64,000 nt of DNA from a bacterium (GTDB lineage Bacteria; UBA8248), in NCBI GenBank assembly GCA_965261085.1, contig OZ253442.1, positions 2,400,001-2,464,000 of the forward strand, given 5' to 3'. Under the pieces are notes generated by a model. It was not told the origin of the DNA. It searched no databases and was given only the letters and a program-made list of their open reading frames with translations. Positions 5,469-60,126 of the stretch are shown here, in pieces. The stretch's first letter is position 1. Each line of letters opens with the position of its first letter. Both the position numbers and the translations under genes were made by a program.

Positions 5469-5472
5469 TTGG

Positions 5473-29416: not shown

Positions 29417-29812
29417 TCATCCTAAATCCTCATAATCGGACACCTTCCGCGTCCCTCGATCACAAGTCGACGAGAATTTGCCTGGACTGCGAAGATTTCC
29501 GACCGCCGCCACCTCCGCAACTTGAAACCGCTCGATCGCTCGTAAGGACGAGGGAAGCAGTTTTCTGACTCTCGTGAGCGCCTCGATCTGTTGGACCTCG
29601 ACACTAATCTCCTCATTGACGCGTTCACTCACCTGCTGACCAACCATAGATCCTTTCGGCACCACACCGAAAAGCACGTGCCTGCCGCGTTGGTTGAGCA
29701 TGGCGCACTCGGTAGTTTGGGCCGTCTTGAGGCGTGTACCCGTCGTGTGCTTGAACCCCAGCGATTCGGATTCGCCAGCTCCGGTCAGCGCTTTGATCTG
29801 TTCAGGCGTCAT
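29417..29812 (-). pseudogene. AlbA_2/Schlafen-like domain protein, truncated
   Basis: GESESLGFK.TTG...CAMLNQRG.HVLFGV; degenerates after about 75 aa. Confidence 0.65.
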
Positions 29813-33255: not shown

Positions 33256-33260
33256 CGGCC

Positions 33261-42688: not shown

Positions 42689-42864
42689 CCGACACGGGCT
42701 CGCCTGTATGCGCAGGCGTTATAATTGCTCCGCTTTCGATTTGATTACGGATGCCAGTAGGCGGATTCCGGACAAAACTGGGAGTAACGATTATTTCCCA
42801 ATGATATCAACAGGATATAAGGATTCCTTCGCCGATAAAAAAACTTCTCCGCCTCTATGCGGGC
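42689..42864 (+). repeat. 176-bp intergenic repeat, copy 1
   Basis: CCGACA...GTTATAAT..CCGCTT....TTTGATTAC...TATCAAC...GCGGGC. Confidence 0.85.
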
Positions 42865-42938
42865 GAGAAGTGCTTTTTTTGAATGTGCTAATCTGACAAA
42901 TCCTGAGCACTGGATAGCAAGTATGTAAGTAACAAACC

Positions 42939-43200
42939 ATGAGCGATGTATTCGTCTTAGGCGCGGGATTCTCCAAAGCCACCTAAGAAGCAATGCCAAT
43001 AATGGACGAGTTAAGCAACGAGGCCCTCGGACGCCTTGGAGAGCTTGACTCATCTGTACCGCATTCATTGGAGAAACTTGGCAATAATGCCGAGCTTTGG
43101 ATGACCTATTTATCCAAGCCCAGCCTTGGCTTAAAAATTACGATAATGATCGTAATCGCTCGATTGCTAGCCGGATTCGTCAACAGATAAAAATACATTA
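42939..43200 (+). pseudogene. SIR2-like protein 5' remnant
   Basis: MSDVFVLGAGFSKA, followed by a stop and frameshifts. Confidence 0.6.
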
Positions 43201-43325
43201 TCTCGTTCACCTAACCTTCGCCGTTGCTAACGCCCTCGGCGGCGCCATCCGAACCACCGGCCTTGAACTCAACCAAGAACAAGCCAATCCCCATCTTTGT
43301 GACAACCCAAAAATCGCTGCTTAGA

Positions 43326-44030
43326 CTAAATAGACCGACCTTCCCCCGGGCCTGTGCCTGATTTTGATCCATCAATTTTCTGGTGTTCTTCTTGTTTCTC
43401 TACCGAATGTCGGTTCATGGGTTGCCCGAAGAGTTTCCGATAACCCGGGAGGCAGGTACAGTCTCTTGCCCGTTCGCTGCCGAGGAGATTAATTATGTGC
43501 TCGGTGCTTTCGACGGGGACGCGCATTCTCCCATTGAGAAGCGCCAGATACAGAGCTTCGATAGCAGCAGTGTTCCCCAAGGCAGAAGTTACAGAGGCAT
43601 GGCAGAATAGGTCGATGGACCAGCCCGGTTTTCGCCCACACAGGACTTGGATGGCTTGTGCTCGCCCCTTTCGATCATCTATTAGTGGAAGGAACTGGCG
43701 TTTGGCCCCAATCGCAATCGTCGCGGCTTCACCATCGTCGAGGGATGGGGAGCCGGAGGTGAGATTGGCGAAGAGTGCATTCTCCTGGTCAGACATTTCG
43801 CCGAGCGTCACCTTACCTCCGGCTATTAGGCCATGTAAAAAACCGTGTTCGCCCTTATTGCGGCTCGTTTCGTGTTCGAGCTCCGCGGCTACGACCTGCG
43901 GAACAATGATGCCGTTGGGAATAGCCGCTAGAATACGCTCGCCGTAGCTACAGGCGTAGAGGTTAATCAGAACACTCGTATCGAGAACCAGCGGTCTAAG
44001 GTCATCAGCCAGGGAGTTTGAGTAGGTCAT
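43326..44030 (-). CDS. PIN-domain protein
   Basis: LVLDTSVLINL, V..EL, LDDGEAATIA, IDDRKG. Confidence 0.8.
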   Translation of the reverse strand: MTYSNSLADDLRPLVLDTSVLINLYACSYGERILAAIPNGIIVPQVVAAELEHETSRNKGEHGFLHGLIAGGKVTLGEMSDQENALFANLTSGSPSLDDGEAATIAIGAKRQFLPLIDDRKGRAQAIQVLCGRKPGWSIDLFCHASVTSALGNTAAIEALYLALLNGRMRVPVESTEHIINLLGSERARDCTCLPGYRKLFGQPMNRHSVEKQEEHQKIDGSKSGTGPGEGRSI

Positions 44031-45195
44031 CCGTCTCGCTATCCTCAAGCTCGATCTGATCGATGATATTCCGCAGTTCGACGCGACCAACCTTAAGTAG
44101 TTCCGTCAGTTGGCCTTCTGACATGAGGCCACGTTTCCAGGCGGCATGGACCATCAGGCTCATCCGGTGGGAAATCGGACGGTCGGCGTCGGTCTTAGCA
44201 GGGTCAGGTCGATTGGCCATCTCGCCAAGCACCTCCCGCACGTGAGCCTCCGTAATGCTGCCGTTCTTCTCAAACCACTCCCACGTCCCTTTTTTCGTAA
44301 TGCCAAGCTCCTCCAGACGTAGTACGCATGCCTGGCGGGAGATATTGTATTGCTGGGAAAGTAGAATGATCAGCCGTCGGGTGGTCTTGCCAGTGATCTC
44401 TTTCAATTGCCGGAAGCTTTCTTTGAAGCTCTCGGCGGGCGTCAACAATGCGCGACCAAAGGCATTGGCGTAGCGCTCGTCGCGAGACAAAAACCTCTCG
44501 TCCTCTTTAAGTATTTCTGGAGTGTTGCGGGTCCCGTAGAAGTGGCCGAGTTCGTGCGCGGCCGACTGGATACGCCGAGGCAGTGGATGGTTGGCGTTAA
44601 GAAGAATACAGGCGCCAACGGTATCATCGTAAGTGAACAAACCCGCCACTTTTGATTTGGATGATAGGCGGCGTTGATAAAGACGAATGTCGAGACCCAG
44701 CTCTATGATCGAGAATATGTCGGCAATCGGCCCTGGACCGAGACCCAACCAGTCGCGAAACTCTTGGGCATGATTCTCGGCCAAAGTCAAAACGTTGCCC
44801 TCATTGATGCCGCGGTCCGGCGGATAGTTCCGGCGCCGCTCAATGCCGAGCATATTTTCCAACTCGACGTTCGCCTTAATCAGGTCATTGAAAAGCTGAA
44901 TGGCTTCAGCCTGATGCTTGTCCTCCGTTTCCCGCAGTCTCCGGAAGCGGGGCACGAGATCCGTATGAACGGCCTCGCGGCGGAGGAGGGCGTTCACCGA
45001 TACGCCGTAGTGGCGGGCCAACACTTGGAGCTCCTGAATACGTACACTGCGCGCCCCCTTCTCAATCGAGACCAGGGTCGGTCGTGACATGTCAATGAAC
45101 TGGGCTGCATCATCCTGTCGTATGCCCGCGTTCTCGCGCGCCAGCCGAAGGCGGCGGCCGATTTCCTGGGCGCTCAATTCATTCAGATCGGCCAT
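44005..45195 (-). CDS. XRE HTH - ImmA/IrrE metallopeptidase fusion
   Basis: RLRLARE...SRPTLVSIEKG; AAHELGH (HExxH), ERYANAF. Confidence 0.9.
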   Translation of the reverse strand: MADLNELSAQEIGRRLRLARENAGIRQDDAAQFIDMSRPTLVSIEKGARSVRIQELQVLARHYGVSVNALLRREAVHTDLVPRFRRLRETEDKHQAEAIQLFNDLIKANVELENMLGIERRRNYPPDRGINEGNVLTLAENHAQEFRDWLGLGPGPIADIFSIIELGLDIRLYQRRLSSKSKVAGLFTYDDTVGACILLNANHPLPRRIQSAAHELGHFYGTRNTPEILKEDERFLSRDERYANAFGRALLTPAESFKESFRQLKEITGKTTRRLIILLSQQYNISRQACVLRLEELGITKKGTWEWFEKNGSITEAHVREVLGEMANRPDPAKTDADRPISHRMSLMVHAAWKRGLMSEGQLTELLKVGRVELRNIIDQIELEDSETDDLLKLPG

Positions 45196-46567
45196 AACGT
45201 CCTCCCTCCATCCAGCTCTTCAAGAAGCTTTGTTCTCCTTGGGCGGATAAAAATGCCCGCCATTCTTCCGCATGCTTCACCAGTAGAGTTCTCAGATTCT
45301 TCAGAGTATCTTGAAAGGTCGCACCGGTTGCTGCCGCGATTTCCCATACATGCACACGGAGTTCGTCATCTGGCAGAACTGCCATATCGGCTAGATGTTG
45401 CAAATGCCGCGCACCGACGCTGCCATACTCGACCATAATGTTCCGGTCGGCATTCTGCGGGATGATGGATAAGGCCTTGGTCACATCCGAAGTACTCAGA
45501 TCAGAAACCAAGTAGGTGGCTGGCATCTCGGTGACGGCGGCTGCGTGCAGACTCTGGCGTCTGAGCAGGCAGGCTGCGCATAGGCCGCAATGCTTCTTGC
45601 TGCCCCCGCTGTTCACGATTCGGCGGTTTTGCCAGCAGGAGCGCGTGCTGGTGAGGTCGTGTTCGCGCTTACCAGGAAGGTCCAGAAATGCCTGTAGCGT
45701 CTGGCCTTTCGTGTACCATAGGCGAGGCTGTTCGTAATAGACCTGATGGCGTAACAGCGTCTCAATGAACCGCTCCATCTTCCGGAAAAACGTCGGGTAG
45801 TTGCGGTAATCAGGGTAGATATTGTGAAGAGGCAGCAACACTGGGCCTAAAGCGCTCTGACCGCTCTCCGAAACCGTGATTCGGGTTACATTCGACAAGT
45901 GAGCGGCAATCGTCGTTACTGCCGCAAACTGAAACCCACGAGACCGGAAACTACTCTCGTTGCTCCGGTGTCCATGAACTTTGAATGGGATCTGAGAAAA
46001 GTAACTGTCACCGGTCTTCCTACGTTGGCGAAATTTTGTGAGCCGGATGCAAAGTGCTTCATCCCTATCCCCACTCAAAGCAGCGACTGCACGCGAGTCC
46101 AATCCGTCACTATAGGCGATAGCGAAGGTCTTAGTGTTCGGGAAGTTTAGAGCGCCTTGGCGCTCGCCAATCGGAGATGGGTTTTTCGCCTGCACGAAAG
46201 TCAATTTCCAATCATCACACGTAAGGTGACGTAGCACGTTATGGAGGCTCTCCTGCACTTCGTGATTTTGCCAAGTCTCAAGGTCAATAACCGGAACCAT
46301 CACGTGCAGGTTGCGATTCCAGCCCCGTGGGCGCTTCCAGCGACGGTCGGCAAACTCAATGGCCGCGCACAATACCAACAGGTCGTAGTGCACCGGCAGA
46401 AAACCCTTTACATCGAAGGTATCGAGAACAGTCGCGTTGAAGGTGATTTCTCGGCTAACCATAGCCGTCTCTACATCTTTCGGGCAGATATGGTCGGGCC
46501 TTTGGCCTTTCTCAATGACGTGCAGACGCTTGGCTTTCGTTTGTGAACCATTTAGTTCGGTGCTCAT
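45179..46567 (-). CDS. QueC-like (7-cyano-7-deazaguanine synthase fold, QatC-like) protein
   Basis: PP-loop AYSDGLDS, RSRGF, ESGQ, TKGQ, SCW...HCGLCAACLLRR; 462 aa with an extra N-terminal domain. Confidence 0.85.
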   Translation of the reverse strand: MSTELNGSQTKAKRLHVIEKGQRPDHICPKDVETAMVSREITFNATVLDTFDVKGFLPVHYDLLVLCAAIEFADRRWKRPRGWNRNLHVMVPVIDLETWQNHEVQESLHNVLRHLTCDDWKLTFVQAKNPSPIGERQGALNFPNTKTFAIAYSDGLDSRAVAALSGDRDEALCIRLTKFRQRRKTGDSYFSQIPFKVHGHRSNESSFRSRGFQFAAVTTIAAHLSNVTRITVSESGQSALGPVLLPLHNIYPDYRNYPTFFRKMERFIETLLRHQVYYEQPRLWYTKGQTLQAFLDLPGKREHDLTSTRSCWQNRRIVNSGGSKKHCGLCAACLLRRQSLHAAAVTEMPATYLVSDLSTSDVTKALSIIPQNADRNIMVEYGSVGARHLQHLADMAVLPDDELRVHVWEIAAATGATFQDTLKNLRTLLVKHAEEWRAFLSAQGEQSFLKSWMEGGRYGRSE

Positions 46568-47139
46568 TCGTCGGGGCCCTCATCCACGCCCACTTTCATT
46601 CGAGTGACTTGCCTGAAGGCGCGTCCGTTGTCGGAGACCAGGGCGTCGCAGAGCTCGTTTGGTCTTATGGCACCAAAGGCTTCGTGGTTGCGCTCGATTC
46701 CTTTACGATAGTTCTCATGGTTCATGTCGCCGAGGTCACGAGCACGGATGCACTGCTCATCGAGTCGATTCTTGGTGATGCCGATCGAGTCCGTAACGGC
46801 GCTCAATATCGCCTGCCCCAGTGCTCTCTCGCCAGGAATCTGTTCTCGGAGGTTGGCAATCAGGTGTTTCTGGAGGATATTAGTTAGAGGCGGTTTCGCC
46901 TGGCCGTCGAAGATGGCCTCGACTGAGGAAATCGAGTCCATATCCATCTGTGGCCGCTGAGCGTGTGCTTTGAGTTCGTTCAAGAGCGCGCCAAACGCTT
47001 TCATGTCCACATTGCCGAGCATGCTGTGGCACGCCTGGGCGGCTCGTTCTTCCGAACTTACAGCGTCGTTCACGAGATCTTTGCCATACCGCTTCCATCG
47101 GCTGCTCAGCGCAGCGTTTCTGAACGGTCCATCCGTCAT
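46564..47139 (-). CDS. Hypothetical helical protein, first gene of the QueC-like operon
   Basis: GGAGG RBS before MTDGPFRN; ATGA overlap with the QueC-like start. Confidence 0.7.
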   Translation of the reverse strand: MTDGPFRNAALSSRWKRYGKDLVNDAVSSEERAAQACHSMLGNVDMKAFGALLNELKAHAQRPQMDMDSISSVEAIFDGQAKPPLTNILQKHLIANLREQIPGERALGQAILSAVTDSIGITKNRLDEQCIRARDLGDMNHENYRKGIERNHEAFGAIRPNELCDALVSDNGRAFRQVTRMKVGVDEGPDE

Positions 47140-47148
47140 CACAACCTC

Positions 47149-47187
47149 CATTGTCAGTATATTATTTTAATATACTGACAATGTCAA
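47149..47187 (-). promoter_or_regulatory. Perfect 16-bp palindrome overlapping a sigma70-like promoter
   Basis: CATTGTCAGTATATTA-TTT-TAATATACTGACAATG (47149-47183); minus-strand TTGACA-N17-TAATAT. Confidence 0.7.
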
Positions 47188-47316
47188 TATTTAAATTCAA
47201 GAACTGATATATTTTCACGCGGGACGTTCTAAATCGAGCGCTGGTCACTCCGAGGTCCAACAAGGGATTCCGAGGAGTTTGTCCCGGTATGTACGAGGCG
47301 CTCATGATAATGAGAA

Positions 47317-47565
47317 CGGACCGTCGAGCACGACCTGCCGGGAGAAGTCTCCTTCCTGAGGCGCTACGATGCGTTTCGCAGGGAGCTGAACCTGGTGGTC
47401 GACATACCGGAGAGGTTGTCTGACCTTCTGTTCCGGTTCCTGCACCGCAATGGCGGCAAACTAATCCGCCGAGGCCAGGAAAAGGAACTCGCCGCGCTGA
47501 CCGATGACGAGGCAGCGCGAATCGAAACGATTTACCGCGAGGTGTTCGCCGATGCCGGGGCTTGA
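47317..47565 (+). pseudogene. C-terminal remnant resembling Fic-family proteins
   Basis: DLPGEVSFLRRYDAFR...VDIPER..DLLFRFLHRNGGKL...LTDDE..RIE.IY*; no 5' part. Confidence 0.55.
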
Positions 47566-47625
47566 AACAGATGGCCTTGTGACCGGTCTACCCAGCCGGC
47601 CGAGCGGTAGTGGCTTCGGTAGACG

Positions 47626-47801
47626 ACGACACCGCCTCGCCTGGATGCGCGTGAGTTTGAATTCGCCCGCTTCCGTTTTGATTACTTATTACAGATAAGC
47701 GAATCCCCAACGAAGCTCCCAAAAACAAATATCCATAACAGTCTCAAGAAACTACAAGGACTTCAGAGCCGTTGGATACACCCCACCGTCTCTAAACGGG
47801 C
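47626..47801 (+). repeat. 176-bp intergenic repeat, copy 2
   Basis: CGACA...ATTCGCCCGCTTCCGTTTTGATTAC...GCCGTTGGA...AAACGGGC. Confidence 0.85.
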
Positions 47802-48022
47802 GAAAGAGGGCAAAAATAGTCTTTCAGCGATTGACGTTCTGCCTGAATCACTCGGATGCCGATGAATATGACAAACAACCGAGTGCTGCGTCCGTATCCA
47901 AAGAGCGGGAATGGCTACTGGGGACGGATCCTAGGAAGGCACTGAAGCCGAAGGCGGTAAGTAGCGAACTTGGGCAGTATAGAAGCGGTTTTTTAATGTG
48001 GCACGCTAATGGAGCGTATCCT

Positions 48023-48955
48023 TTAGCTAAAGTTTGCGAAGAACGGCATGACCACCCTCTTGGTAGTCAAGGCTCTTTCTGGATAGAGCAAGATTAGGAT
48101 GTTGTAGGTCGTATCAAACGCTTCGGCGACACACTCATGTTGCTCACCGTTAATGTCGGTAATCGGGAGCGAAACGGGTTTTGTCATTCTGCGGCCAACC
48201 GGAAGCACCTGCCATAGAAAATGATCTGGCGTGACTGCATCGACAGTAGGTCGTCCGAATTGGGCAAGAAAAGCGGGCGAGGGTTCAATGCGTCGCACTG
48301 GCGCCCGGAACCCGGAACCTTCAATGTTCTCCATTGGGTCTAGAACAAAAACGACGCACGCTCTGTGGCTGGTGCGGGCAAATTCGCGTGTGGAGGCATA
48401 AATCGAGGCCCCAAATGTCCTGGCGAGTCTGATCGGTGTCTTGATCTCGAATGGGCAATCGGCGGCTTGTTTGGCGAAGGTGTTGCCCTTGAATAGTACA
48501 AAGCGCGCATAGTTGTTGGCTTCACGCTCAAATTGGTCGGCGACCTCGGGCTCTAGAGTCCTTTTGCAGTCCTGGAATATTCGAAACATCTTGCGGTGGG
48601 TCGGCATATCGTGATGTCCGGTTTCATGAAGCTTGAGAAAGGTCTGTTTTGATTCGACTACGGAATTATCAATATGGATGACGGTCTCACCCGCATCATA
48701 AAGCCCGAAAACCTTGCTTATCGCCGACTTGATTCGAACAGTAGTGTCGACGGTCTTGGCTTTAAGGTAAGAGAGTATGGCATCGGGGTCGAAAGCATTA
48801 GTGGGGACAATACCGACCTTTGCTGCAGTAAGAATGTCGTCGATTGGGGCCGGGAACCGGTTCCAGGCATCCGCGCGGTCGAGGAGTTGTCTAGCTCGCC
48901 CCTCGACCACGCGGAGATCCTCCGGGTCGAGAGCGCTGTCATCAGGTCTTGTCAC
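48023..48955 (-). CDS. ImmA/IrrE-type metallopeptidase (CapP-like)
   Basis: KLHETGHH (HExxH), FEREANNYA; start overlaps the HTH gene end. Confidence 0.8.
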   Translation of the reverse strand: MTRPDDSALDPEDLRVVEGRARQLLDRADAWNRFPAPIDDILTAAKVGIVPTNAFDPDAILSYLKAKTVDTTVRIKSAISKVFGLYDAGETVIHIDNSVVESKQTFLKLHETGHHDMPTHRKMFRIFQDCKRTLEPEVADQFEREANNYARFVLFKGNTFAKQAADCPFEIKTPIRLARTFGASIYASTREFARTSHRACVVFVLDPMENIEGSGFRAPVRRIEPSPAFLAQFGRPTVDAVTPDHFLWQVLPVGRRMTKPVSLPITDINGEQHECVAEAFDTTYNILILLYPERALTTKRVVMPFFANFS

Positions 48956-49307
48956 GCGCCCGCCTCCTGCTGCGCAAGAACTCAAGGTACTCCATCAACT
49001 CGGATTCTTCTTCGGGCGTCAAATTATACTCGGCGAATGTCGCCACCCGGCCGTGACGGTCATCGTCTGTACGTTTGGCCAACGACATGAGATAGCCAGC
49101 CTTATCCATGAGGTTCTCAAAGCTGACCACATAGATTTCGGCCAGGGAATGAAGGATGTTGGGAGAAGGTTTCCGGATTTTGTCATTTTCGATCTGGCTG
49201 AGATAGGCATTCGATACCCGCTTGTTAGTCGCCTCCTCGACTTCGCGCAATGTCATTTTGCGATCTGTACGAATAGAAGCGAGGTATTGTCCTAGTGTTG
49301 GCTTCAC
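48942..49307 (-). CDS. XRE HTH regulator (CapH-like)
   Basis: MTLREVE...VSNAYLSQIEN..IRKPSP.IL. Confidence 0.88.
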   Translation of the reverse strand: MKPTLGQYLASIRTDRKMTLREVEEATNKRVSNAYLSQIENDKIRKPSPNILHSLAEIYVVSFENLMDKAGYLMSLAKRTDDDRHGRVATFAEYNLTPEEESELMEYLEFLRSRRRARDKT

Positions 49308-49689
49308 GTTGCTCCCCTCCGTAGCGGGGCGGACATAGCTTCAACTCCCTGAAATGAATTGATAGTTAAAATTCTAGCTTCGATCGCTGGGCGAGTCAAG
49401 CGTGCTCGATTATTGCTTGATAAATATAGCACGCTGTGGAATAATAGCACCATGCCTGAACCATGGTGGTGCAGGTAGTGACTCTTCAAGGAGATAAACC
49501 ATGGAAATATCTCCTGATCTTGCCGTATCTGGGAGCGAAAATATCGAACAGGAGCCAGCATAATATGTCCTCTTTCTCTCTGGACCACATGTGGTGCCCT
49601 CCAATGAATTTTATCCAATTACTTGAATGTCGGCAGAACGTGCCCAAACAGATTACGGTGACGCATAGCCATAGGAAAGGAACACAGCC

Positions 49690-49977
49690 ATGAATGATAA
49701 GCCTGAATACCCAATTAATAAGCCTGTCGAGCCCGGCAAGACGGTTACGATCATCGTAAACGGCGTCGAAAAACCGGTGGAAGCAAGGTCTGAGCTGAGC
49801 TTCGACGATCTTGTTTTGCTCGCTTTCAACGAAAAACCGGGAAACCCGAACATCGTATATTCGATCACTTATACGAAGGCTGAAGGTGCCCAAGACGAAG
49901 GTTCATTAGCCCCTGGTAAGAAGGTTAAAATCGTAGATGGAATGATTTTCGATGTCGACAGAACTGATAAATCTTAA
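49690..49977 (+). CDS. Ubiquitin-like (multi-ubiquitin domain) protein
   Basis: VTIIVNG...LSFDDLVLLAF...YSITY...GSLAPG..VKIVDGMIFDV..TDKS. Confidence 0.85.
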   Translation: MNDKPEYPINKPVEPGKTVTIIVNGVEKPVEARSELSFDDLVLLAFNEKPGNPNIVYSITYTKAEGAQDEGSLAPGKKVKIVDGMIFDVDRTDKS

Positions 49978-51148
49978 TCCGGACCTCAAGAAACTCAGAG
50001 ATGATGGATACAATATCGAAATACGGGAGGGGCATCTACTTGTAAAGGATGTCTCGTATCTGGATGACACCGGTGCAATTAAGCGGGGAACTTTGCTCTC
50101 GCCGTTAACTCTCGCTGGGGATCGAACGGCTCAACCGGAGCGCCACACGGTATTGTTTACCGGTGAGTATCCCCACTCTAGTGATGGGAAACCCCTTACA
50201 GGGATTAAGTGTGGTGAGCGGAATAAGCGAATAGTCGCGGGGCTGATGGTTTGCTACGAATTTTCGGCTCACAAACTCGATGACCAAGGCAATAAAGTTC
50301 GCTATAAAGACCATTACGAAAAAATGACGTCTTATGTGCGTCGGTTGTCTCATCCGGCCGCGTCTGTTGATCCCGGTGCCACAGCACAGACGTACAGAGT
50401 TCTGGAACCCGTGGACGAGGATTCCCCCTTCGAATACCTTGATACTGCGAGTGCGCGCGCTGGAATTACCGAGATGCAATCGAAACTTACAGAATGCCGT
50501 CTCGGAATTATAGGCGTAGGAGGAACTGGCAGTTACGTTCTTGACTTCGTCGCGAAAACGCAGGTTCTTGAAATTCAGATTTTTGATGATGACCTCTTTC
50601 TCTCCCATAACGCTTTTCGAGCCCCGGGAGCTGCGTCGAAAGCAGAGCTTCGGGCCCAACAACACAAGGTCGAGTATTTTCGGAAAAAGTATAGCGTTCA
50701 AAGACGAAGAATTATTGCTCACCGTGAACGAATTACGAGCGAAAATCTGAAATTATTGGATGTTCTGGATTTCGTCTTTATTTGTCTCGATTCTGGAAAT
50801 GGGAAAGAAGAAATTATCACGCACTTGGAAAAATTGGAAAAACCTTTTGTCGATGTCGGCATGGGAATTACTTCTGTGAACGGAATGCTTCGGGGAACGG
50901 TGCGTACAACCACCAGTACTGTTTCACACCGGGATCATATAAGGGAAAATAGCCGTTTTTCGCTGGAAGGTGATCCGGTCGAGGATGAGTATTCAAGCAA
51001 CACTCAAATTGCCGAGCTAAACGCGTTAAATGCTGCCTTGGCTGTTATCAGGTGGAAGAAGATTTACGGGTTTTATTTAGATCAGTTAGGTGAACATCAT
51101 TCGGTCTACCTTATTGGTCAGAATCGAATAGTGAACGAAGATGCATAG
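49952..51148 (+). CDS. ThiF/E1 adenylyltransferase with N-terminal E2-like (DUF6791-type) domain
   Basis: DLKKLRDDGY..EIREGHLLV; IIGVGGTGSY, FDDD...HNAFRAPG, FICLD, DVGMG. Confidence 0.85.
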   Translation: MSTELINLNPDLKKLRDDGYNIEIREGHLLVKDVSYLDDTGAIKRGTLLSPLTLAGDRTAQPERHTVLFTGEYPHSSDGKPLTGIKCGERNKRIVAGLMVCYEFSAHKLDDQGNKVRYKDHYEKMTSYVRRLSHPAASVDPGATAQTYRVLEPVDEDSPFEYLDTASARAGITEMQSKLTECRLGIIGVGGTGSYVLDFVAKTQVLEIQIFDDDLFLSHNAFRAPGAASKAELRAQQHKVEYFRKKYSVQRRRIIAHRERITSENLKLLDVLDFVFICLDSGNGKEEIITHLEKLEKPFVDVGMGITSVNGMLRGTVRTTTSTVSHRDHIRENSRFSLEGDPVEDEYSSNTQIAELNALNAALAVIRWKKIYGFYLDQLGEHHSVYLIGQNRIVNEDA

Positions 51149-51159
51149 AGGCCTAAACT

Positions 51160-51591
51160 GTGAAATGGGAACACATTTTTGTTGACACAATTCCAGCACA
51201 AATTGCGCCTCGTGTGCTGTACGTGTCAATCCGTTATCGGACTGCGAAACATTTATGCCCATGCGGTTGCGGTAGCGAGGTTGTAACGCCGATCCGGCCA
51301 AACAAGTGGAGTATCAGGTTTAACGGGAGATCCGTTTCGTTGTACCCGTCGATCGGTAACTGGAGCCTGGAGTGTAAATCTCACTACTGGATCAGAGAGA
51401 ACGAGATAGAGTGGGCAGAGGCGTGGAGCGATGCGCAAATTGAACGGGCTCGATCGAAGCAGCGTGTTGCGGACGCAAAATATTTTCGATCAGTGGATGC
51501 CGGTGAAGAGTGGAGTGAGCAGACGGTACCTATGAAAACTGTAGCGGCTTGGTTATGTAGAGTAGGAAGGTTCTTTCGTAGCAAGAAGTGA
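51160..51591 (+). CDS. DUF6527-family protein
   Basis: HLCPCGCG.EVVTP...SLYPSIGNW...CKSHYWI. Confidence 0.85.
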   Translation: MKWEHIFVDTIPAQIAPRVLYVSIRYRTAKHLCPCGCGSEVVTPIRPNKWSIRFNGRSVSLYPSIGNWSLECKSHYWIRENEIEWAEAWSDAQIERARSKQRVADAKYFRSVDAGEEWSEQTVPMKTVAAWLCRVGRFFRSKK

Positions 51592-52130
51592 CGATGAGTA
51601 TGGTGACATTACGGTGTTGGCGTAGAGGTTAAGGGATAGCTCGGTTTGAACAGAAAGGAGGTGCATGGCATGCCCTCTAAAACGAACGTCTCAGCCCGCA
51701 AACTACGGAAACGTACTCCGGTATTTTGGGGGAATTTTCACGCAGCCTGTCGCAATGTACCAAGGCTCTCCCGATAGAAGATAGACTGATATCTTCGCAT
51801 CAGTTGCCCTTGCTCTTGAACAAGTTCTCGGCGTTCACTTCGCACATCTCAATGTCAAAGTGGTGTTGATCGTCACGACAGAACTCTGTCTCCGAATCGA
51901 CGCCGTTAAACTCGAAGCGATGCATCGAAGTACGCCCGACTGTTGTCGGTCAGGATAGTCTGCCCTCCTATCCCCAAAGCCTCGTACGAGAGTAAGACGT
52001 CACTGTGAACCACCGCAGTTGCGTGTCCAGGCACCCCATGGGAAGCGAACCGGTGGTCCCTGAACCAACGTCGCGGGACCCCTAGCATGCCTACAAGCAA
52101 GCTGTTGCGGGCCAGACTTTAGGGGACGCT

Positions 52131-52306
52131 CCGACACGGACCCACTGGGATGCTCGGGAGTTGTAATGAATCCGCTTCCGTTTTGATTACTTACTGCAGA
52201 AAGCGATTCTCGAACGGGATCAGGAATTATGAATCTGTCCTAATAATATCAACGGAATAAGTGGATTTCACAGCCGTTGGAAATCGCCTAGTGTCTCTAA
52301 GCGGGC
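52131..52306 (+). repeat. 176-bp intergenic repeat, copy 3
   Basis: CCGACA...GGAGTTGTAAT..CCGCTTCCGTTTTGATTAC...TATCAAC...AAGCGGGC. Confidence 0.85.
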
Positions 52307-52712
52307 AAAGAGACCGCCAAGGACCTGATAATGTTAGGCTGCTGTAGAGCAAGGGCCGCCGCACTCTTCCGCAATCGAGCCCGTATGGTTGTCTGGGTTG
52401 AACAAGCCTGCATCTTGAAAGTAAGGGCCACACGGAAAGGAGGGAGACATAAGTCAGGAAGCGACTTACACAAGACATAAAGTTCGACGGCCTTGGCCAG
52501 TTAACGAGTCGCTTATCGCGCATGGCAACTCAGAGAGGGCCGAACTAGGCGAAACCTTATTAAACAGCTATGAGTCATGCTTTCCAAGAAGACCTATGCT
52601 TCAGGTGTCTATTGGTTGACAGACACCTTTCTCGATGGGGAATCTAGTCTCGTAGCCTAAACTTGTCTGTCGGTCAATAAAATTGTCCCCAAATCGTGTT
52701 GGAGTGTGAACT

Positions 52713-53768
52713 GTGACTAGCCAAGACTGGCATAAGATATCTCGGTTTGAATCTCACGACCTCGTGAAGGCGTGGTACCTCAGAACTCATGAAAGAGAAC
52801 CAAACACTGCCAAAATCTCACAAGTCAACGCCTTCTTTACACAAGGACGCGAGTATTTCAGGAATGCGAGCTTAGCAGACATGAGTGTCAAGCCACTCTT
52901 GCTTTACTACGGATCATTGTCTTTGTCTCGTGGTGTGATCCTGCTCAAGGACCCTTCGAAGAAGGAGGAATCACTCAAGCAAAGCCATGGTTTGGAGGTT
53001 GTGGACTGGCAAGAGACTTTGAGTGGCGGAATTAAGAATGTCCTCAAATTACAAGTTAGGGCGACCAATGGCACGTTTCGTGAACTGGTGAATGCTTGCC
53101 CAAACAAACATAAAGAACAATGCTTCAACAGCCCGAGAAAAACAAAAACCGTAGTGGATCATGACCTTGGTGACATCAAATTTTCTGCTGACGATAGCCT
53201 GCTGCATTTGGATGACTTACTCTCGAGGCTGATGCAAACCACGTTCGACTATCAAGGAATCACTGGCAGGAAGTCCAAGTGGTTTCCTGTTGTAGTTACA
53301 GCCCATTCAACAGAAACGCACTTTGCACTGCTGTCCCCTCATGTAATTCCTGATTTGCAACATCTGGTAGATGAGAAATCCGTGTTCTTAAAATCTACAC
53401 CTCAATCGAGGCCAAACTTACCAATCGACACTATTCACCAGTCTAGTCTGGTGTTCCGGCACGAGGTTGATAAAACCCACCAGAAGAAATTTCCTGTTTT
53501 CCACCATACCGATGGTCACCAATTGATGACTGGTATTTTGGATTTTCCCAATGGGGACAAATTGAGTGAGTTCTTCAAACTTTACCTGACTTCATATATA
53601 TTGGGAATGCTTGTCCGCTATTATCCATCCAGGTGGATGAAGTTATTGCGCAATAGTCCAGGCGATTTTGCCCGACTGCTATTGTTAAAGGCCATTGAGG
53701 CGATTGAATCTGACTTTCCTGGGGAACTCTCACGGCAAGTGCCTCAGCACCCTGAAAGGTTAGGCTGA
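52713..53768 (+). CDS. YaaC-like protein
   Basis: QGREYF, KPLLLYYG, SHGL, YILGMLVRYYPSRW. Confidence 0.7.
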   Translation: MTSQDWHKISRFESHDLVKAWYLRTHEREPNTAKISQVNAFFTQGREYFRNASLADMSVKPLLLYYGSLSLSRGVILLKDPSKKEESLKQSHGLEVVDWQETLSGGIKNVLKLQVRATNGTFRELVNACPNKHKEQCFNSPRKTKTVVDHDLGDIKFSADDSLLHLDDLLSRLMQTTFDYQGITGRKSKWFPVVVTAHSTETHFALLSPHVIPDLQHLVDEKSVFLKSTPQSRPNLPIDTIHQSSLVFRHEVDKTHQKKFPVFHHTDGHQLMTGILDFPNGDKLSEFFKLYLTSYILGMLVRYYPSRWMKLLRNSPGDFARLLLLKAIEAIESDFPGELSRQVPQHPERLG

Positions 53769-54189
53769 TTACTCTCAAGAAAGTGGTAAGGTCGGTTGAT
53801 TGTCGTTGGCGGAGACATGTTGGACCAGTGGGGTGTCGTTGTTCAGGATAAATATCCAGCTAACTGGCCTGAAGTCGACACGCCTTTGTGGACACCTGAT
53901 CCTTTGAGAAGGAGGTATCCACCATGCTGACACCTTGGCCGTTCCCCGGGAAAGGTTGCACAACCGCTAAGAGTTGCCTGGCAGCTTTCTCGGCCTCGCA
54001 CCGACCACTTTGGGGCGTCCTTAGAACTACGGCCGTCTTCTCGAAGCAATTTACAACCAAGATTGATATCGCCAATCGACTCCGAGGAACGTGCGTGAAC
54101 GAACGCTCTTTTGGATGCTAATCGCTCTGCTGGACTGTTTCGTAAGCAAGCGTTTACGGCCTGATTTTAGAAGTGGGTTACACAATGGT

Positions 54190-54365
54190 CCGACATAGAC
54201 CCGCCGAGATGCGCAGGAGTTATAATTCGCCCGCTTGCGTTTTGATTACATTCTGCGGAAGGTGGATTCTGGACAAAACTGGGAGTAACGATTATTTCCC
54301 AATGATATCAACGGGATAACAGGATTTCAGGGCCAGTGGAAATAACCTAATGCCTCTAAGCGGGC
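54190..54365 (+). repeat. 176-bp intergenic repeat, copy 4
   Basis: Shares the core GGACAAAACTGGGAGTAACGATTATTTCCCAATGATATCAAC identically with copy 1; same ends. Confidence 0.88.
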
Positions 54366-54750
54366 GATGGGTATTTCGGCGAACCGGCTCCAAGTATGGC
54401 GGTAACGTGGATGCGTGAATTACTTGGGACATCGCGGCCCGGTTCCATATGATTGACCATAGAGCAAAAGTAACCATTAGAAGTTGGGACCCTGTTCTCA
54501 GGGTTGATTTTTCTCTCTGGGTTCTAGGTTGTAAATCAAGCGACTGGGTTATCGCTCGGCAGATACGAATTTCATCGAAGGGAAAGCGCTTTTCGCGGAC
54601 AAGACGCTCGGAGAGTAGCGAGTAGCTGCAGCGCGGCAGGCGTAGGCAGCCAGATCCTTGCGAACAGCTTCGACTTAGCCGTAATCATGCCTGGCCATCC
54701 TCGTGGAAGTGTGCCACATTGCTTTTCCTCTCGCGTCCCCTTGACCGTCA

Positions 54751-55587
54751 TTACTCCCCATTTCCCTCGCTCTTATTGCCGTCCTTCCACGGTTCGCCTG
54801 ACAATCGCCCCAACAGCCTGGAGCGAACGATTTCCGCAGCCTCTTCGCCATCCCAGGAAAATCCAGTGGCCAGAAGCGGGCCGATATCGGAATTAAATTG
54901 CGCATCGCGCAGCTTCGCTTCGATGTTCTGCTCAAACCGGGCACGCGTCACGTCGTGGCTGCCTCGCTCCATATACTTCGAAAACGCGGCAACAACCCGA
55001 TCCGGATCGAGCGCCGTTTCCTCGAGTGCGACCGCAAGATCGAAAAGGTCACGGCCTTTACGGCGCTGATAGAGAGCCCGCAGCTTGGTGGCCAGCAACT
55101 CTTCCAGCGTATACGTGGAGATCTCGCTGCTGCCCTCGAACCAGCGCGAAGAGACGGTGAACGGCAGCTGCGTGTATCCGTAGACCGCAAAGTGTTCCCT
55201 CGAATTGATCTCTACTTTCAGCCGGAGCGGAAGGGGCGGGACATCCTCGGACTCGAAGCGGTAATTGAATGTCACACGTCCTTCGGTCTGTTTATATTGT
55301 GGTTTCCCAAGCCAGGGATCGAGCACTTCCCGAACCGCGTCCATCATCGGCCCGGCCGGCTCGGCTCTGACCTGTACAAGGTCGATGTCTTCGGAATAAC
55401 GGGCCGGGGGATGAATGTGTAGTTTGTAGAGCGCCGTACCGCCCCGGAAGGCCAGCGCTTCTTTAAGGAGCGGGTGATTGAAAATCGCAATCAACGCCCG
55501 GCTGATGACGAGGTCTTGTTCGACCTGGAAATCCTGCACCCAGGGCACCCGCGCCCGCCACTCGGTGATAAAGTCGCGCGGGATCAC
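54751..55587 (-). CDS. abiEii: AbiEii-family nucleotidyltransferase toxin (type IV TA)
   Basis: VEQD, FRGGTAL, RYSEDID, KVEIN, KLRAL..R.KGRDLFD. Confidence 0.9.
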   Translation of the reverse strand: MIPRDFITEWRARVPWVQDFQVEQDLVISRALIAIFNHPLLKEALAFRGGTALYKLHIHPPARYSEDIDLVQVRAEPAGPMMDAVREVLDPWLGKPQYKQTEGRVTFNYRFESEDVPPLPLRLKVEINSREHFAVYGYTQLPFTVSSRWFEGSSEISTYTLEELLATKLRALYQRRKGRDLFDLAVALEETALDPDRVVAAFSKYMERGSHDVTRARFEQNIEAKLRDAQFNSDIGPLLATGFSWDGEEAAEIVRSRLLGRLSGEPWKDGNKSEGNGE

Positions 55588-56393
55588 AGGTCCGGCTCCA
55601 CGACGGCGTTGATCAGGAGCTTCCAGTCCGCGTCGCGGGGCGCTTCTTCGCGGGACGCACTAGGGATAAGCGGAACCGTTCGCCGGGCTTCACTCTCGAC
55701 ATAGGCTTTCAGAGGGACGATCTGTTCACGGGCATTGACAAGCGCGAGCAGGTATCCAAGCCTCTGTGCCCACGTAATCGGCGCGTTTTGCGCGGCCATC
55801 ACCAGTTTTTGCGGATCGATTTGCTCTGCGAGCTCGGAGAGGATGGTCGCCACCTGGTCAAGCCCACCTACGTGGTTGTAATAGCCGACGAGATCAACGG
55901 CCGTTGCTTCCGGCGTCGAGACCCTGACCGTGCCGCGAGGCGTGTTGAAGGTTTGTACGGATACATTCTGAAGGCGCTTGCGGACGATGAATACCACGCG
56001 CACCCGGCCACAATGGATCGGCCGACGGGCCTTGTCGAGCAGAACCTGAAATTCTTGGGGCCGGTGATGGGCTGCGCCATGATATTGTGCGGCTGACAAT
56101 AGCCCAGCATAATAGGGTTGCTTTAGCCGCTGCATTAACGCTGGTATGAACTGGTTCGCTGGTAGACATCCAAGAGTGCGGTATTCGGGCGGGACTATCA
56201 CATAAAAGCCACGCCCGGGCTGTGCAACGAGGTTTTGCCGAGCTAGCCGTTTCAGAGCAACCTTTGCAGCGTTGGCGGACACACCAAGCGCCTCAACAGC
56301 GTCACTTGATGTGAAGTGATATCTCCCAGCAGAAGCAAGGTTGCCAATGTAGTTATTTGCACTTAGTCGACGATAATCAATTTTCATGCGCAC
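55584..56393 (-). CDS. abiEi: AbiEi-family antitoxin
   Basis: GFYVIVPPEY, YYAGLLSAA.YHGA, STPEATAVD, QRLGYL; overlaps the toxin start. Confidence 0.85.
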   Translation of the reverse strand: MRMKIDYRRLSANNYIGNLASAGRYHFTSSDAVEALGVSANAAKVALKRLARQNLVAQPGRGFYVIVPPEYRTLGCLPANQFIPALMQRLKQPYYAGLLSAAQYHGAAHHRPQEFQVLLDKARRPIHCGRVRVVFIVRKRLQNVSVQTFNTPRGTVRVSTPEATAVDLVGYYNHVGGLDQVATILSELAEQIDPQKLVMAAQNAPITWAQRLGYLLALVNAREQIVPLKAYVESEARRTVPLIPSASREEAPRDADWKLLINAVVEPDL

Positions 56394-56677
56394 AAAGTAA
56401 CACTATATGATCCTTTATGCAATCGATTTATATTATTGTGATAGCAGTACAAGGCTGACGCTGACGACGAGAAAGATGAGACTTTATCCAGGTAGCGAGC
56501 AGCAGATTGAGCTTCCCGATATTAAGCTTTGATCTTGTTCCCTTTTTTTAGGTTAAGGATTTGCTCGGATCGGAGCTACTAGTATTTATTCTGTAATGTA
56601 CATTGAACTCTCTGGACTTGACTTCTGCTCAACCCTAACCAACTTTCAGCTATAGTTTCTGGGTAAAACGAGATGCA

Positions 56678-57832
56678 TCAATATTTCTCGTGTTCAGGTT
56701 CTTCGTGAAAAAATGGTGCAACATATCCAAAATCCACTTCAATGTTTTCCTTTACCACCTCCACCTCAACGACTTGCGGTTCAGTGTCAAAGTCACGCAA
56801 AATGGTGATTACAAGCTGGGATATAATTTCCTTGTCAACTGTATAAGTATCAGAGCCAACCTCAAAATAATCTCTGTCAATGCTATCTCTCACGTAAAAG
56901 CTGCAATCCGCTTCAAAGGCGACTAAAGATTCGACATCTATGGTGAATGTGACGGTGTTCTTGTCTGCAGCAATAACAATAGGAACACTGGCAGTGCCGC
57001 TATCCACACTTAGCAAATCAGCACCAATGGGCATAAACTCAAATATCCGGTCGGACGAGCCATCCGGATAAAAACCAGTGTTGTGAAGCCATCGCTGAAA
57101 AGCTCGTTCTACTTGTTCAGCCAGTTTGGGAGCTTTTTCATCCTGCCACATGGCGACAGTCCGGTTGGCTACATTTCTACCTGACTCGTTAAAGTACGAA
57201 AGAGCCAACTCTAGCTTAGGTACGCAAACAAGAAAATCCGACTGCTCCGCAAAGCTCTGCCAGCCTTTGTCGGGGCTAACGCAAAGGAGCAATCGGTTTT
57301 CCTGCCTAGCAATATCCTCAAGAGAAAGCAGCGCGAACGCATCCGGAAACTCGTATTTCTTGTTCTCGCTAAACCCAAAAGGCGGTTCCGTGGCATAATA
57401 TCTGCGCAACACTTCTACCGACACATCGTTTTCCCCACTTGCGGGCACGATTTCACCGTCGACATCATTGAGATAGTTTTGCACCTGTTCTTCTGCAGCT
57501 TCTTCTGGATTGCGGGAGATGGCCAATTCATCTGGTAGTGCCGCAAGGTCAAAATTTAATTTCCAACGCTTTACCTGTTCTTTAATTGCATACTTGAGTT
57601 GGTTTTGTGTTCTTTTGGCTTTGTCTGCGATATGAGCTTTGATTTCATTCGTGACAATTTCTGAAAAGATTACCCTGATCGGTCCACCTGAGAACTGATC
57701 AAGTTTATAGAGAACCGGAGAATCGAGGAGATTATCCTCGGGTTTTCCAAAAACGGCAGTATCAAGAGAAATCGCAAAAATAGAGCCATCTGCGATGTTA
57801 TCCTTTACTTCATCGTCAGTCATTTTTGGCAT
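56678..57832 (-). CDS. PIN-domain protein
   Basis: ISLDTAVF, IVTNEI, PPF...KKYEFPDA, VSPDKGW. Confidence 0.75.
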   Translation of the reverse strand: MPKMTDDEVKDNIADGSIFAISLDTAVFGKPEDNLLDSPVLYKLDQFSGGPIRVIFSEIVTNEIKAHIADKAKRTQNQLKYAIKEQVKRWKLNFDLAALPDELAISRNPEEAAEEQVQNYLNDVDGEIVPASGENDVSVEVLRRYYATEPPFGFSENKKYEFPDAFALLSLEDIARQENRLLLCVSPDKGWQSFAEQSDFLVCVPKLELALSYFNESGRNVANRTVAMWQDEKAPKLAEQVERAFQRWLHNTGFYPDGSSDRIFEFMPIGADLLSVDSGTASVPIVIAADKNTVTFTIDVESLVAFEADCSFYVRDSIDRDYFEVGSDTYTVDKEIISQLVITILRDFDTEPQVVEVEVVKENIEVDFGYVAPFFHEEPEHEKY

Positions 57833-57934
57833 TCGAATTCCAACCACTTGCGGTAAGCATTTCGGAAATTTACTTTCCCTGAGATGCGGAACTGCTCAAT
57901 CAACATTAAGCGGAGAACGGTATTTTTCTGAAAC

Positions 57935-59269
57935 TCATGAAAGTTGTTCTGGGTTCAAATCTGCCTCTGCGCTAACCCGCTGGGTCTCGATCGTCCTTTC
58001 GTGCATTAAATCAAAGACACAATTTTGCTGGACGTGCCATTGCCCCTTCTCACTCGGCATAGCCACATCACCGACTTCGTTATGTCTAAACGCAGTTATC
58101 CGGAATTTTCCCGCAACTTCGGTCTTGAGGGTTTTGCCTTTCATAAAGACAATCGCATCTGCTCTCGCCACAGTGCTTTGCCGAACAGAGTGTATTTCAA
58201 ACTCCGTTAGATCAATAAATTCTGCGTCCCTGCGCATCTGTCCAGCTAAATTGTTGAGCGGGGTTTGGGTAATGTTCACTGCTCGTTTGGCCATATTGCC
58301 AAAGTTTCGTTCTTTCCAGCTGGTCAGAAAATCGACAAATGCGTAGTCGGCTGAATTTACATCCAAACTTTCATCGAAGGGCCCGTGGTTTTCCTTAGGT
58401 TCAAATGCTTGTATTTCACGCTTATCAGCTTCTAATTTGACTCTGCTAGTGATCATGTCCCTAAAACTGAAATTAGCCTTCTTTTCTTGTTTGAGAATGC
58501 GTTCTTCTTCACTCGATTTGTCGCAAGCCCAATCAACTAGTGCGATCATTAGAAGCCAAGCTTTCATGCAAACAGTGCGATTTGCGTAACCCAACGACCT
58601 GCCATGTAAAATACCGTGACGAAGAGGTAGTGTTAGGTCTTCGTCGGACGATTTACGAATGCCCTTCGTTACCAAACCAATCAGAAATGGCAATGAATTC
58701 GGGTGTCCAGTGATAGAGTCGAATGCTGTGAGGTCAGCGTCTTTTTCAAATGGACTAGTTCCTATTACGTCTGAGGCAAAACCATCACATGCAATGAGGA
58801 TCAATGGTACGGCGGATAGATACCTCTCTTCAATTGTAAGCTCAAGCGCTTCTCGTAGTTGATCCCATCTAAGCTTGGCCTTATTGAATCTTTTCGCTCG
58901 CACAATCGCGAACTGGTTGATTGTGTCCTCTTTGAGCCAAGAAATTATTTCATTTTCTGCTTCCTGTTCCTTGCCAGCATCGTGGAATTCAAGAGCTTTC
59001 CGCATGGTATCGACAGACATAGAGCCAGTAGCTATCCACCCACTTTCCGAAAAAGCATCGTTAAACCGATCAGGTAAATCCAGGATGCTCGATTGTCCAA
59101 TTAGATCTGAAGCGGTTTGGTGAATTTTATCGATCTTTTCGTTCTCAATTCCCAATTTTTGGGCTAGTCCAGAAATTGACTTTGCCAGCTTGACCACTGG
59201 CATCACATCAGAAATTTCCTTTGCAGAAGGATTGTTAGCGATGCGCGGGTTTTTCGTCTCGTTGTTCAT
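57935..59269 (-). CDS. Hypothetical protein with HEPN-like motif
   Basis: 444-aa ORF; helical core with PLRHGILHG (RxxxxH). Confidence 0.6.
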   Translation of the reverse strand: MNNETKNPRIANNPSAKEISDVMPVVKLAKSISGLAQKLGIENEKIDKIHQTASDLIGQSSILDLPDRFNDAFSESGWIATGSMSVDTMRKALEFHDAGKEQEAENEIISWLKEDTINQFAIVRAKRFNKAKLRWDQLREALELTIEERYLSAVPLILIACDGFASDVIGTSPFEKDADLTAFDSITGHPNSLPFLIGLVTKGIRKSSDEDLTLPLRHGILHGRSLGYANRTVCMKAWLLMIALVDWACDKSSEEERILKQEKKANFSFRDMITSRVKLEADKREIQAFEPKENHGPFDESLDVNSADYAFVDFLTSWKERNFGNMAKRAVNITQTPLNNLAGQMRRDAEFIDLTEFEIHSVRQSTVARADAIVFMKGKTLKTEVAGKFRITAFRHNEVGDVAMPSEKGQWHVQQNCVFDLMHERTIETQRVSAEADLNPEQLS

Positions 59270-59717
59270 TCCTGTTCCCTAAACATTTATATGTAAATAC
59301 AAGCTAAGCCCGGTATTAGGTGATGGGTGATCCATCGTCGTGATTTGGGTGTCAGCTTCCTGCACGCCGTTTCGGAATCTCGCATCTTTGATGTTCTTAT
59401 GCAACTAATTTCCGGGCGAAAGAAAAAGGTCTTAATACTGTCAACCGCAACTTTGATATCGAGACTCGCATGGTGATCTTCGAATTCATCAAAGGTTGTT
59501 CAGTCCGAAACACCGACGCTCTTTCTAGTGTAAGCCCTATGACTTCGAACAGAATACGGAGGAGGCTATGCCTTTGGTCGAACGTCTTATTCAGAAGCGC
59601 ATTGTCGATATGTTCGGCTACGCTACAGACACAAATCGGGCACCGCCATAGGTAGCCGAAACATGACCGCAATCAAGCTGCTACGAACCGGACTTTGGAG
59701 GTCAGTTGCAAGACTGT

Positions 59718-59891
59718 CCGACAGGAACGCTCCTGACTGCGCGGGAGTTGTAATTCGCCCGCTTCCGTTTTGATTACTTTCTGCGTAAAAAAATTCCAGC
59801 AAGAGATTCGAAAAACAAATACCTACAATAGTTTCAACAAACTACAAGGATGTCACTGCCGTTGGAAATCCCCTTCCGCCTGAAAGCGGGC
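59718..59891 (+). repeat. 174-bp intergenic repeat, copy 5
   Basis: CCGACA...GGAGTTGTAATTCGCCCGCTTCCGTTTTGATTAC...AAACTACAAGGA (shared with copy 2)...AAGCGGGC. Confidence 0.85.
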
Positions 59892-60126
59892 GGAAACGAT
59901 CAAAAAATTCTATCGAACTGCCAAAAGATGAATTCGTTGTGGTGCCGGTGGTTATATCTCAAAACTCGTTGGAAGACACGATTTCCAAAAGGAATCCAAC
60001 GCAAGCATCAAATGGCTCCAATCTTTCTTGCATCCATAAAACAAGAATTCGTATAGTTCCAGTTCATCGGGCATAGTCGTCGCCGTCCAGATAATTCGCT
60101 CGAAATTGCAAATTCGGAGTTGGCCA

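Follow-up and report, generated by a model that had tools for sequence, protein, structure and literature searches.

A dispersed 176-bp repeat family at gene-module borders and its association with tandem integrase pairs in an uncultured bacterium

The window analysed here is a stretch of 64,000 nucleotides of bacterial DNA, positions 2,400,001-2,464,000 of a 4.27-Mb single-contig genome (G000), and it contains five co-oriented copies of a non-coding repeat of about 176 bp which separate modules of defence-like genes. The comparisons reveal that the repeat belongs to a genome-wide family of constant length, that neighbouring copies share one orientation, that copies downstream of most pairs of tandem genes for P4-like tyrosine integrases (here called IntA and IntB) nearly always have the orientation of the pair, and that gene blocks change at the repeat. 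Our tentative reading, which we rate a little short of an even chance, is that the repeat is a protein-bound attachment (att)-type junction site of a family of integrative elements that carry the integrase pair, and that the arrays have grown by tandem accretion.

A repeat family of constant length

An earlier note on this DNA had placed five repeats at window positions 42689, 47626, 52131, 54190 and 59718, all on the forward strand, and a repeat search followed by a MAFFT alignment recovered every one of them. With (C/A)CGACA taken as start and ..GGGC as end, copies 1 to 4 are 176 bp long (42689..42864, 47626..47801, 52131..52306 and 54190..54365) and copy 5 is 174 bp (59718..59891), the same lengths as given before. 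Copy 2, which was found by repeat search, alignment and profile, begins with ACGACA, and copy 4 is the top match to the family profile. The pairwise identity of the five copies is 62.1-75.7%, and the subtypes proposed earlier are seen again: copies 1 and 4 (75.7%) and copies 2 and 5 (71.8%) are closest, with copies 3 and 4 likewise at 71.8%. The conserved blocks that had been named are present in the alignment, and for the conserved left CGCCCGCTT the description fits copies 2, 4 and 5, where it is intact, but not copies 1 and 3. When a profile of the five copies was compared to the whole genome, each of them was found with an E value of 1e-46 to 1e-52, which is far beyond chance. Copy 1 is preceded by an upstream module of about 100 nt, the D-type, which is common to one other copy, and copies 3 and 5 are preceded by a module of the B-type. 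The array continues past the end of the window with six more copies, up to genome position 2,516,955, which makes 11 copies in total.

The same profile gave 47 matches in the genome (E<1e-5), 28 on the plus strand and 19 on the minus strand, and 36 of them are located outside this array, on both strands. Near-full-length copies number 40, with a median pairwise identity of 64%, and all except one measure 174-178 bp. The conserved blocks, CGACA at positions 2-6, ATGCGC at 20-25, CGTTTTGATTAC at 49-60, an ATCAA box at about 116-120 and a terminal GCGGGCG, are fixed in their spacing and parted by spacers of variable sequence; ATGCGC is found at positions 20-25 in 49 of 79 distinct copies. Upstream modules of about 100 nt, of a few types, precede many of the copies, the B-type standing before 12 of the 40, which gives the family a mosaic build. 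Three copies are 94% identical to each other, over positions 1-179 only.

Some copies are located in islands and others separate housekeeping genes (among them those for xanthine dehydrogenase/hydantoinase, znuA, methylmalonyl-CoA mutase and a DEAD-box helicase), and several adjoin genes for S24 peptidases (LexA/CI-like) or HTH-M78 regulators. The cargo of the other arrays includes adhesins, genes for secretion and conjugation, and a transporter gene. The idea that the repeat is special to a defence island, or to defence cargo, thus has to be abandoned. A tRNA gene (tRNA-Ser) adjoins a single copy only; a second call, of a tRNA-Pro, overlaps the repeat and looks spurious. Two apparent coding sequences were also rejected, a 403-amino-acid protein between repeats, which is the antisense of a solute-binding-protein (SBP) gene, and a recurrent protein 3' of repeats, which is the antisense of S24-peptidase genes. 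The top strand of 36 of the 47 copies lies on locally negative GC skew, but arrays in the plus orientation occur on both replichores, and a replication-strand bias is therefore not relied on.

A model of the repeat made from sequence only was applied to 41 genomes, G000 and 40 others. The family is present in 22 of them: G000, 18 of the 22 others of the genus, and three of seven genomes from another family of the class. The number of matches in the 21 positive genomes other than G000 ranges from 1 to 53, and the four members of the genus whose genomes are smallest or most divergent had none. In a wider collection of contigs, 118 loci with a degenerate form of the motif included only 13 real copies (E<1e-9), in records of metagenome-assembled genomes titled 'bacterium', 'Nitrospinota', 'Nitrospinaceae', 'Chloroflexi' and 'Rhodospirillaceae'. 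Short contigs of this kind may be mis-binned, so no claim across phyla is drawn from them. A literature search at the level of abstracts found no description of the repeat or of such tandem integrase pairs.

Integrase pairs, junctions and insertion sequences

Neighbouring copies that are no more than 15 kb apart are co-oriented in 20 of 20 pairs, and the 47 copies form 11 orientation runs, a number as low being obtained in one of 20000 shuffles. The window array is part of a 123.3-kb region (2,393,864-2,517,134) that is missing between adjacent flanks in all five relatives examined; in the closest one (G008) the flanks are 58 bp apart. This insertion begins with two tandem tyrosine-integrase genes and ends 180 nt past the last copy of the repeat. 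The integrase pair, which is P4-like, is located at 2,394,223-2,396,398 (L213:10199-12584), 3.6 kb before the start of the window. The earlier note had not identified any recombinase, and pairs of this kind are now candidates, since the 5' region of the pair is homologous to the first half of the repeat.

The integrase family is strongly expanded, with 12 matches in G000 (five tandem pairs, a gene on its own and another match) and a maximum of 25 in the relatives. IntA and IntB are about 55% identical to each other, and both retain the R..HxxR..H..Y catalytic motifs as read by eye. A pair makes up a compact unit of 2.6 kb, present five times, and two of these units share 97% identity over the stretch that starts 243 nt before intA and closes with the end of intB. 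Downstream of the four pairs P1-P4, 23 of 24 copies of the repeat within 130 kb have the orientation of the pair, including all 11 downstream of P3, and the first co-oriented copy is found 43, 62, 46 and 46 kb away, respectively. The sequence immediately upstream of intA aligns to repeat positions ~7-93, with E values of 4.5e-6 and 2.5e-5 for two pairs in G000, and positions 76-93 cover the ribosome site, the start codon and the first codons of intA. Of 30 integrase loci of G000 and related genomes, seven have this match, and in the five whose coordinates were checked it is co-oriented with intA and lies 8-41 nt upstream of the gene. The integrase family is present in 19 of the 41 genomes, all of them repeat-positive, and in none of the 19 repeat-negative ones. 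Behind one pair lies the 3' third of a further integrase gene, and the second gene of another pair is cut at the HDLRHS motif.

Repeat positions 13-30 form an imperfect inverted repeat around a 6-bp spacer holding ATGCGC, for instance in copy 4 (54202..54219, plus strand) and at the same positions in the other four copies of the window. From its sequence, and from two recent junctions at or before position 21, this may be a core-type site. The left edge of the 2.6-kb integrase unit lies in a palindrome, with arms CCGG and spacer CATGCG, which is related to the candidate core and more perfect, and this palindrome is also present in the empty sites of two relatives (G021 and G011). At the spot of the 123-kb island, these empty sites (L219 in G021 and L217 in G011) show a near-perfect palindrome, ATTCCGG/CCGGAAT around a short spacer. 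The next ~20 nt correspond to the left end of the integrase element.

The suggestion that gene blocks change at the repeat is supported by comparisons both inside a genome and across genomes, which place the changes either at an edge of the unit or in the first ~40 nt. An inverted duplication of 11.17 kb (1,155,939-1,167,108 and 3,711,538-3,722,707), 100% identical and carrying a TrwC relaxase, a NikA-like gene and their neighbours, has its start at repeat position 21, directly in front of TGCGC. In G008 the xanthine dehydrogenase locus contains 6.2 kb and a second copy of the repeat, both absent from G000, and homology resumes at position 15 or before. The neighbours of a 10-kb core block, which lies between two co-oriented copies, are different in G021 and G011, and in G015 the outer flanks beside this block are without a strong match; homology stops at the repeats. 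The two flanks of the znuA copy are apart in four of five genomes, and further joints were found at repeat position 1 and near position 180.

The repeat is explained most simply by tandem accretion of integrative elements, which is a known process. The 176-bp unit, together with the ~100-nt upstream module that many copies have, would make up a composite of about 280 bp. The host elements would be integrative and partly conjugative, with the tandem integrases IntA and IntB as their recombination module. Such elements, and modules that bear a site and lack an integrase, would be stitched one after the other next to a resident element, and each joint would keep one full site in the orientation of the integrase pair. 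The window array would then consist of the integrase pair, about 46 kb of element backbone, and the repeat-bounded modules. Single copies, and breaks in core-genome synteny at copies, would result where sites recombine with each other or elements decay. That IntA and IntB bind and cut the site, where they would cut it, and that the arrays originate from accretion, we infer from the sequence comparisons.

The repeat is also associated with insertion sequences (IS). An IS110-family element of 1402 bp is present in four identical copies in G000 (279,515-280,916; 2,515,371-2,516,770; 3,789,403-3,790,807; 3,784,716-3,786,117), and three of them end 7-9 nt upstream of repeat position 1. An older fragment of the element adjoins a fourth repeat copy, and in G006 an IS110 has this position next to a repeat copy, but the orthologous copy in G000 lacks it. 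This fixed placement in both genomes implies that the IS110 element targets the 5' edge of the repeat. Elements of the IS110 family are RNA-guided, and they use repetitive extragenic palindromic (REP) sequences as targets, as IS621 does. A second element, IS5-like and 1522 bp long (DUF772 and DDE_Tnp_1), is found at 1713-3176 of the window and at about 24 other sites, in about 25 near-identical copies, one of which lies directly 3' of the repeat at 790,204. In two genomes of the other family of the class, G030 and G032, the repeat, the integrase pairs, the IS110 element (85% amino-acid identity) and the IS5-like element (77-79%) are all present, which suggests that the whole set of mobile DNA is common to both lineages.

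Alternative explanations and known systems

The earlier note had taken the repeat for a protein-bound DNA element and not an RNA hairpin, pointing to a lack of compensatory changes in its inverted arms, and the fold and covariation tests bear this out. A family of structured non-coding RNA genes would account for the constant length and for a short terminal inverted repeat (CCGC..GCGG) in which a few paired changes can be seen by eye. However, Rfam gave no match in the window at the gathering threshold and none at E≤0.01 on three loci that bear copies, and RNAalifold on 40 copies returned 0 consensus pairs. A mean pairing probability above 0.25 was reached by two column pairs on one strand and by none on the other, all below 0.3. 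The fold of copy 4 is no better than that of shuffled sequences (z-scores -0.06 and -0.95), two screens for column covariation did not find conserved structure, and the long-range arm mismatches, as judged by eye, favour neither strand. An RNA gene family is in our view largely refuted, and we leave it almost no probability.

A more serious competitor is a non-autonomous repeat of the miniature inverted-repeat transposable element (MITE), REP or BIME type which was spread as a unit by some enzyme and became a passive border marker, a substrate for homologous or illegitimate recombination and a landing pad for other mobile DNA, its likeness to intA being a matter of ancestry or capture. We consider this rather unlikely, but it explains a good deal: the 47 copies on both strands, many of them between housekeeping genes; the patchy distribution over genomes, including a second family of the class; the three copies whose 94% identity is limited to positions 1-179; the action of both unit edges as joints; the mosaic upstream modules; and the targeting by IS110, as is the case for members of that family and REP. 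Scatter over the genome in both orientations together with target-site duplications had been named beforehand as the mark of a MITE, and of these the scatter was found but the duplications were not. Flank matches in 40 copies equal those of a control in which the downstream flanks were dealt to other copies. Terminal inverted repeats are absent, as CCGACA.. at one end does not recur in inverted form in the ..GCGGGCG of the other; an inverted 9-mer of the repeat sits at positions 39-47 and at the 3' end. The Y1 (IS200-like) transposase model PF01797, for the Y1/RAYT transposases, had 0 matches in G000 at E≤0.001, and such transposases do not track the repeat-positive genomes. Furthermore, random insertion fails to explain the co-orientation of all 20 neighbour pairs and of 23 of 24 copies with integrase pairs, and copies with a median identity of 64% would be a poor substrate for homologous recombination.

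It is also conceivable that the repeat comes from the promoter region of the integrase and serves as a portable element for regulation or DNA architecture, such as an operator for a repressor encoded by the element or a module for a nucleoid protein or integration host factor (IHF), with no role in strand exchange. The match of positions 7-93 to the promoter-proximal region and ribosome site of intA, the S24-peptidase and HTH-M78 genes beside several copies, and the conservation of blocks with fixed spacing would all fit such an element. Against it, the copies are randomly oriented towards their neighbour genes (the four classes hold 11, 10, 10 and 10 of 41 copies), the -35 hexamer of the integrase promoter is located outside the repeat (read from the alignment), and the junctions at the repeat are left unexplained. 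We find this explanation improbable. A bolder proposal than simple accretion is that the repeat and a heteromeric IntA/IntB make up a multi-locus cassette-exchange system, with a composite site of ~176-280 bp in dozens of copies per genome. Such a system would capture and stack modules for defence, adhesins, transporters and conjugation and would move or invert core blocks, an integron-like function built from different parts and spread horizontally in at least two families of uncultured bacteria. We think that it is unlikely to go this far.

Several observations also weigh against an att-type junction site as the repeat's identity. Only positions ~7-93 align to the intA 5' region, and positions 94-177 lie outside this match. 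The nearby copies at pair P5 have the opposite orientation, one of the junctions is a plain microhomology deletion at position ~38, and the arms of the candidate core do not covary (0.574 as compared to 0.573 in shuffles). In a linkage test on 77 copies, with 28 pairs that have only the upstream flank in common and 21 that have only the downstream flank in common, the identity within the repeat was 0.02-0.19 above background in nearly every bin and showed no step. No single fixed crossover point is thus visible, and both edges of the unit behave as joints. A transporter cassette (SBP) is 97% identical at two loci, whereas the repeats that flank it are about 72% identical or less. An excision product was not seen in the short contigs of four public runs, which gave no usable joints; repeat-repeat joints in these contigs had sides of 21-33 nt at 90% likeness, with low and uneven cover of the modules, and were not used as evidence. 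The co-occurrence of integrase and repeat is weak evidence, because the control elements behave in a similar way: the IS5-like transposase is equally one-sided (15 of 41 genomes and 0 of 19 repeat-negative ones) and IS110 nearly so (16 of 41, with one distant match in a repeat-negative genome). The genomes are split into mobilome-rich and mobilome-poor ones, and they are related. In addition, three repeat-positive genomes, with 1, 13 and 2 matches, are without an integrase of this family.

Among known systems, the closest to tandem accretion of integrase-pair elements is that of the integrative and conjugative elements (ICE) ICESt1 and ICESt3 with their cis-mobilizable elements (CIMEs), where integrative and integrase-less elements accrete in tandem. 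The array resembles this group, in which we also count SGI1 and the ssrA islands, in that a strain-specific island has an integrase at one of its ends and direct repeats of one orientation at its joints, that the modules are integrase-less, and that close relatives have an empty site. It differs in that there is no single tRNA or gene-end locus, but a 176-bp unit present 47 times, also in the core genome; in that the integrases are two in tandem; and in that copies are about 64% identical, with no shared short core demonstrable at a fixed crossover. Tandem SGI1 and the Dehalococcoides ssrA islands (PMC2297512, PMC3146451) serve as further comparators. The attC arrays of integrons are likewise made of co-oriented non-coding sites that keep their size, vary in sequence and separate cassettes, defence cargo included. 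Unlike attC, the repeat does not fold into a hairpin or palindrome, its cassettes hold several genes facing both ways, and the sites are dispersed over the genome. IntI is also absent: the recombinases at the island end are P4-like only, scoring 41-50 bits with the NCBIfam 'integron integrase/XerA' model, as compared to its cut-off of 220.

The repeat is also comparable to REP/BIME, ERIC and RIME as a dispersed intergenic mosaic family with IS110-family insertion at a fixed distance. It is much longer than REP, is not palindromic, lacks a RAYT, and shows a strong local co-orientation tied to integrase pairs. The XerC/XerD dif-like sites and pdif modules have in common with it two paralogous tyrosine recombinases and, in the candidate core, two unlike arms around a 6-bp spacer. 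The pdif sites measure 28 bp and border modules in alternating orientation. The unit described here has 176 bp and a direct orientation, and the integrases are P4-like with arm-binding domains.

Gene modules of the window and significance of the repeat

The intervals between the repeats had been described as defence-like units, and PADLOC and Pfam confirmed this in part (QatC, CapP/HTH-like, E1-like, AbiE, PIN and nuclease genes). Module 1 (43326..47151, minus strand) consists of four genes, among them one for a QatC-like (QueC-like) protein and one for an HTH-M78 regulator. In module 2 (48023..51591) an M78/HTH regulator pair on the minus strand, labelled CapP/HTH-like, is found together with ThiF/DUF6791 E1-like and DUF6527 genes on the plus strand. 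Module 3 is a YaaC-like gene (52713..53768, plus strand), and module 4 (54751..59672, minus strand) holds AbiEii, AbiEi, a PIN_12 protein, and proteins of 444 and 91 amino acids without an assigned family. The first gene 3' of copy 5 (60106..61629, plus strand) encodes a PD-(D/E)XK and RNase H-like nuclease. The SIR2-like and Fic-like gene fragments that had been reported beside repeats found no confirmation in the three gaps scanned, where 0 of 15 open frames match a Pfam family at E≤0.01. The modules of the window are nearly without match in five relatives, of which one has the AbiE pair and another a piece of 311 bp.

Elsewhere in the window, genes for a ClpP-like SDH protease, a ThiF E1-like protein and a Prok-E2_E protein lie in a row at 4545-7591 (minus strand), forming a second ubiquitin-like conjugation cluster that is separate from the one at 49952-51591. 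At 29809-36407 (minus strand) a type IIG/ISP restriction-modification enzyme adjoins an HKD(PLD) and SNF2 helicase gene, PADLOC 'C3a139'. Outside the window, the core SBP_bac_3 gene (native at 1,262,915-1,264,100) has two extra copies, 97-98% identical, at 267,935-269,180 and 2,484,601-2,485,850, each between two repeats in islands.

What is unusual about the family is the combination of a long, dispersed site of fixed length, tandem integrases, homology of the site to the 5' region of the integrase, and its use as a target by IS110. If the integrases do not act on the site, the family is still useful as a marker of island borders and as a natural target of an IS110-family element in this lineage. 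If the integrase pairs do act on it, these uncultured bacteria would have dozens of docking points in their genomes, at which modules for defence, adhesion and transport could be added, lost or re-ordered and blocks of the core genome rearranged. Such activity would explain the synteny breaks at the repeats, and it would provide a testable pair of recombinase and site in which the site is unusually long and fixed in length.

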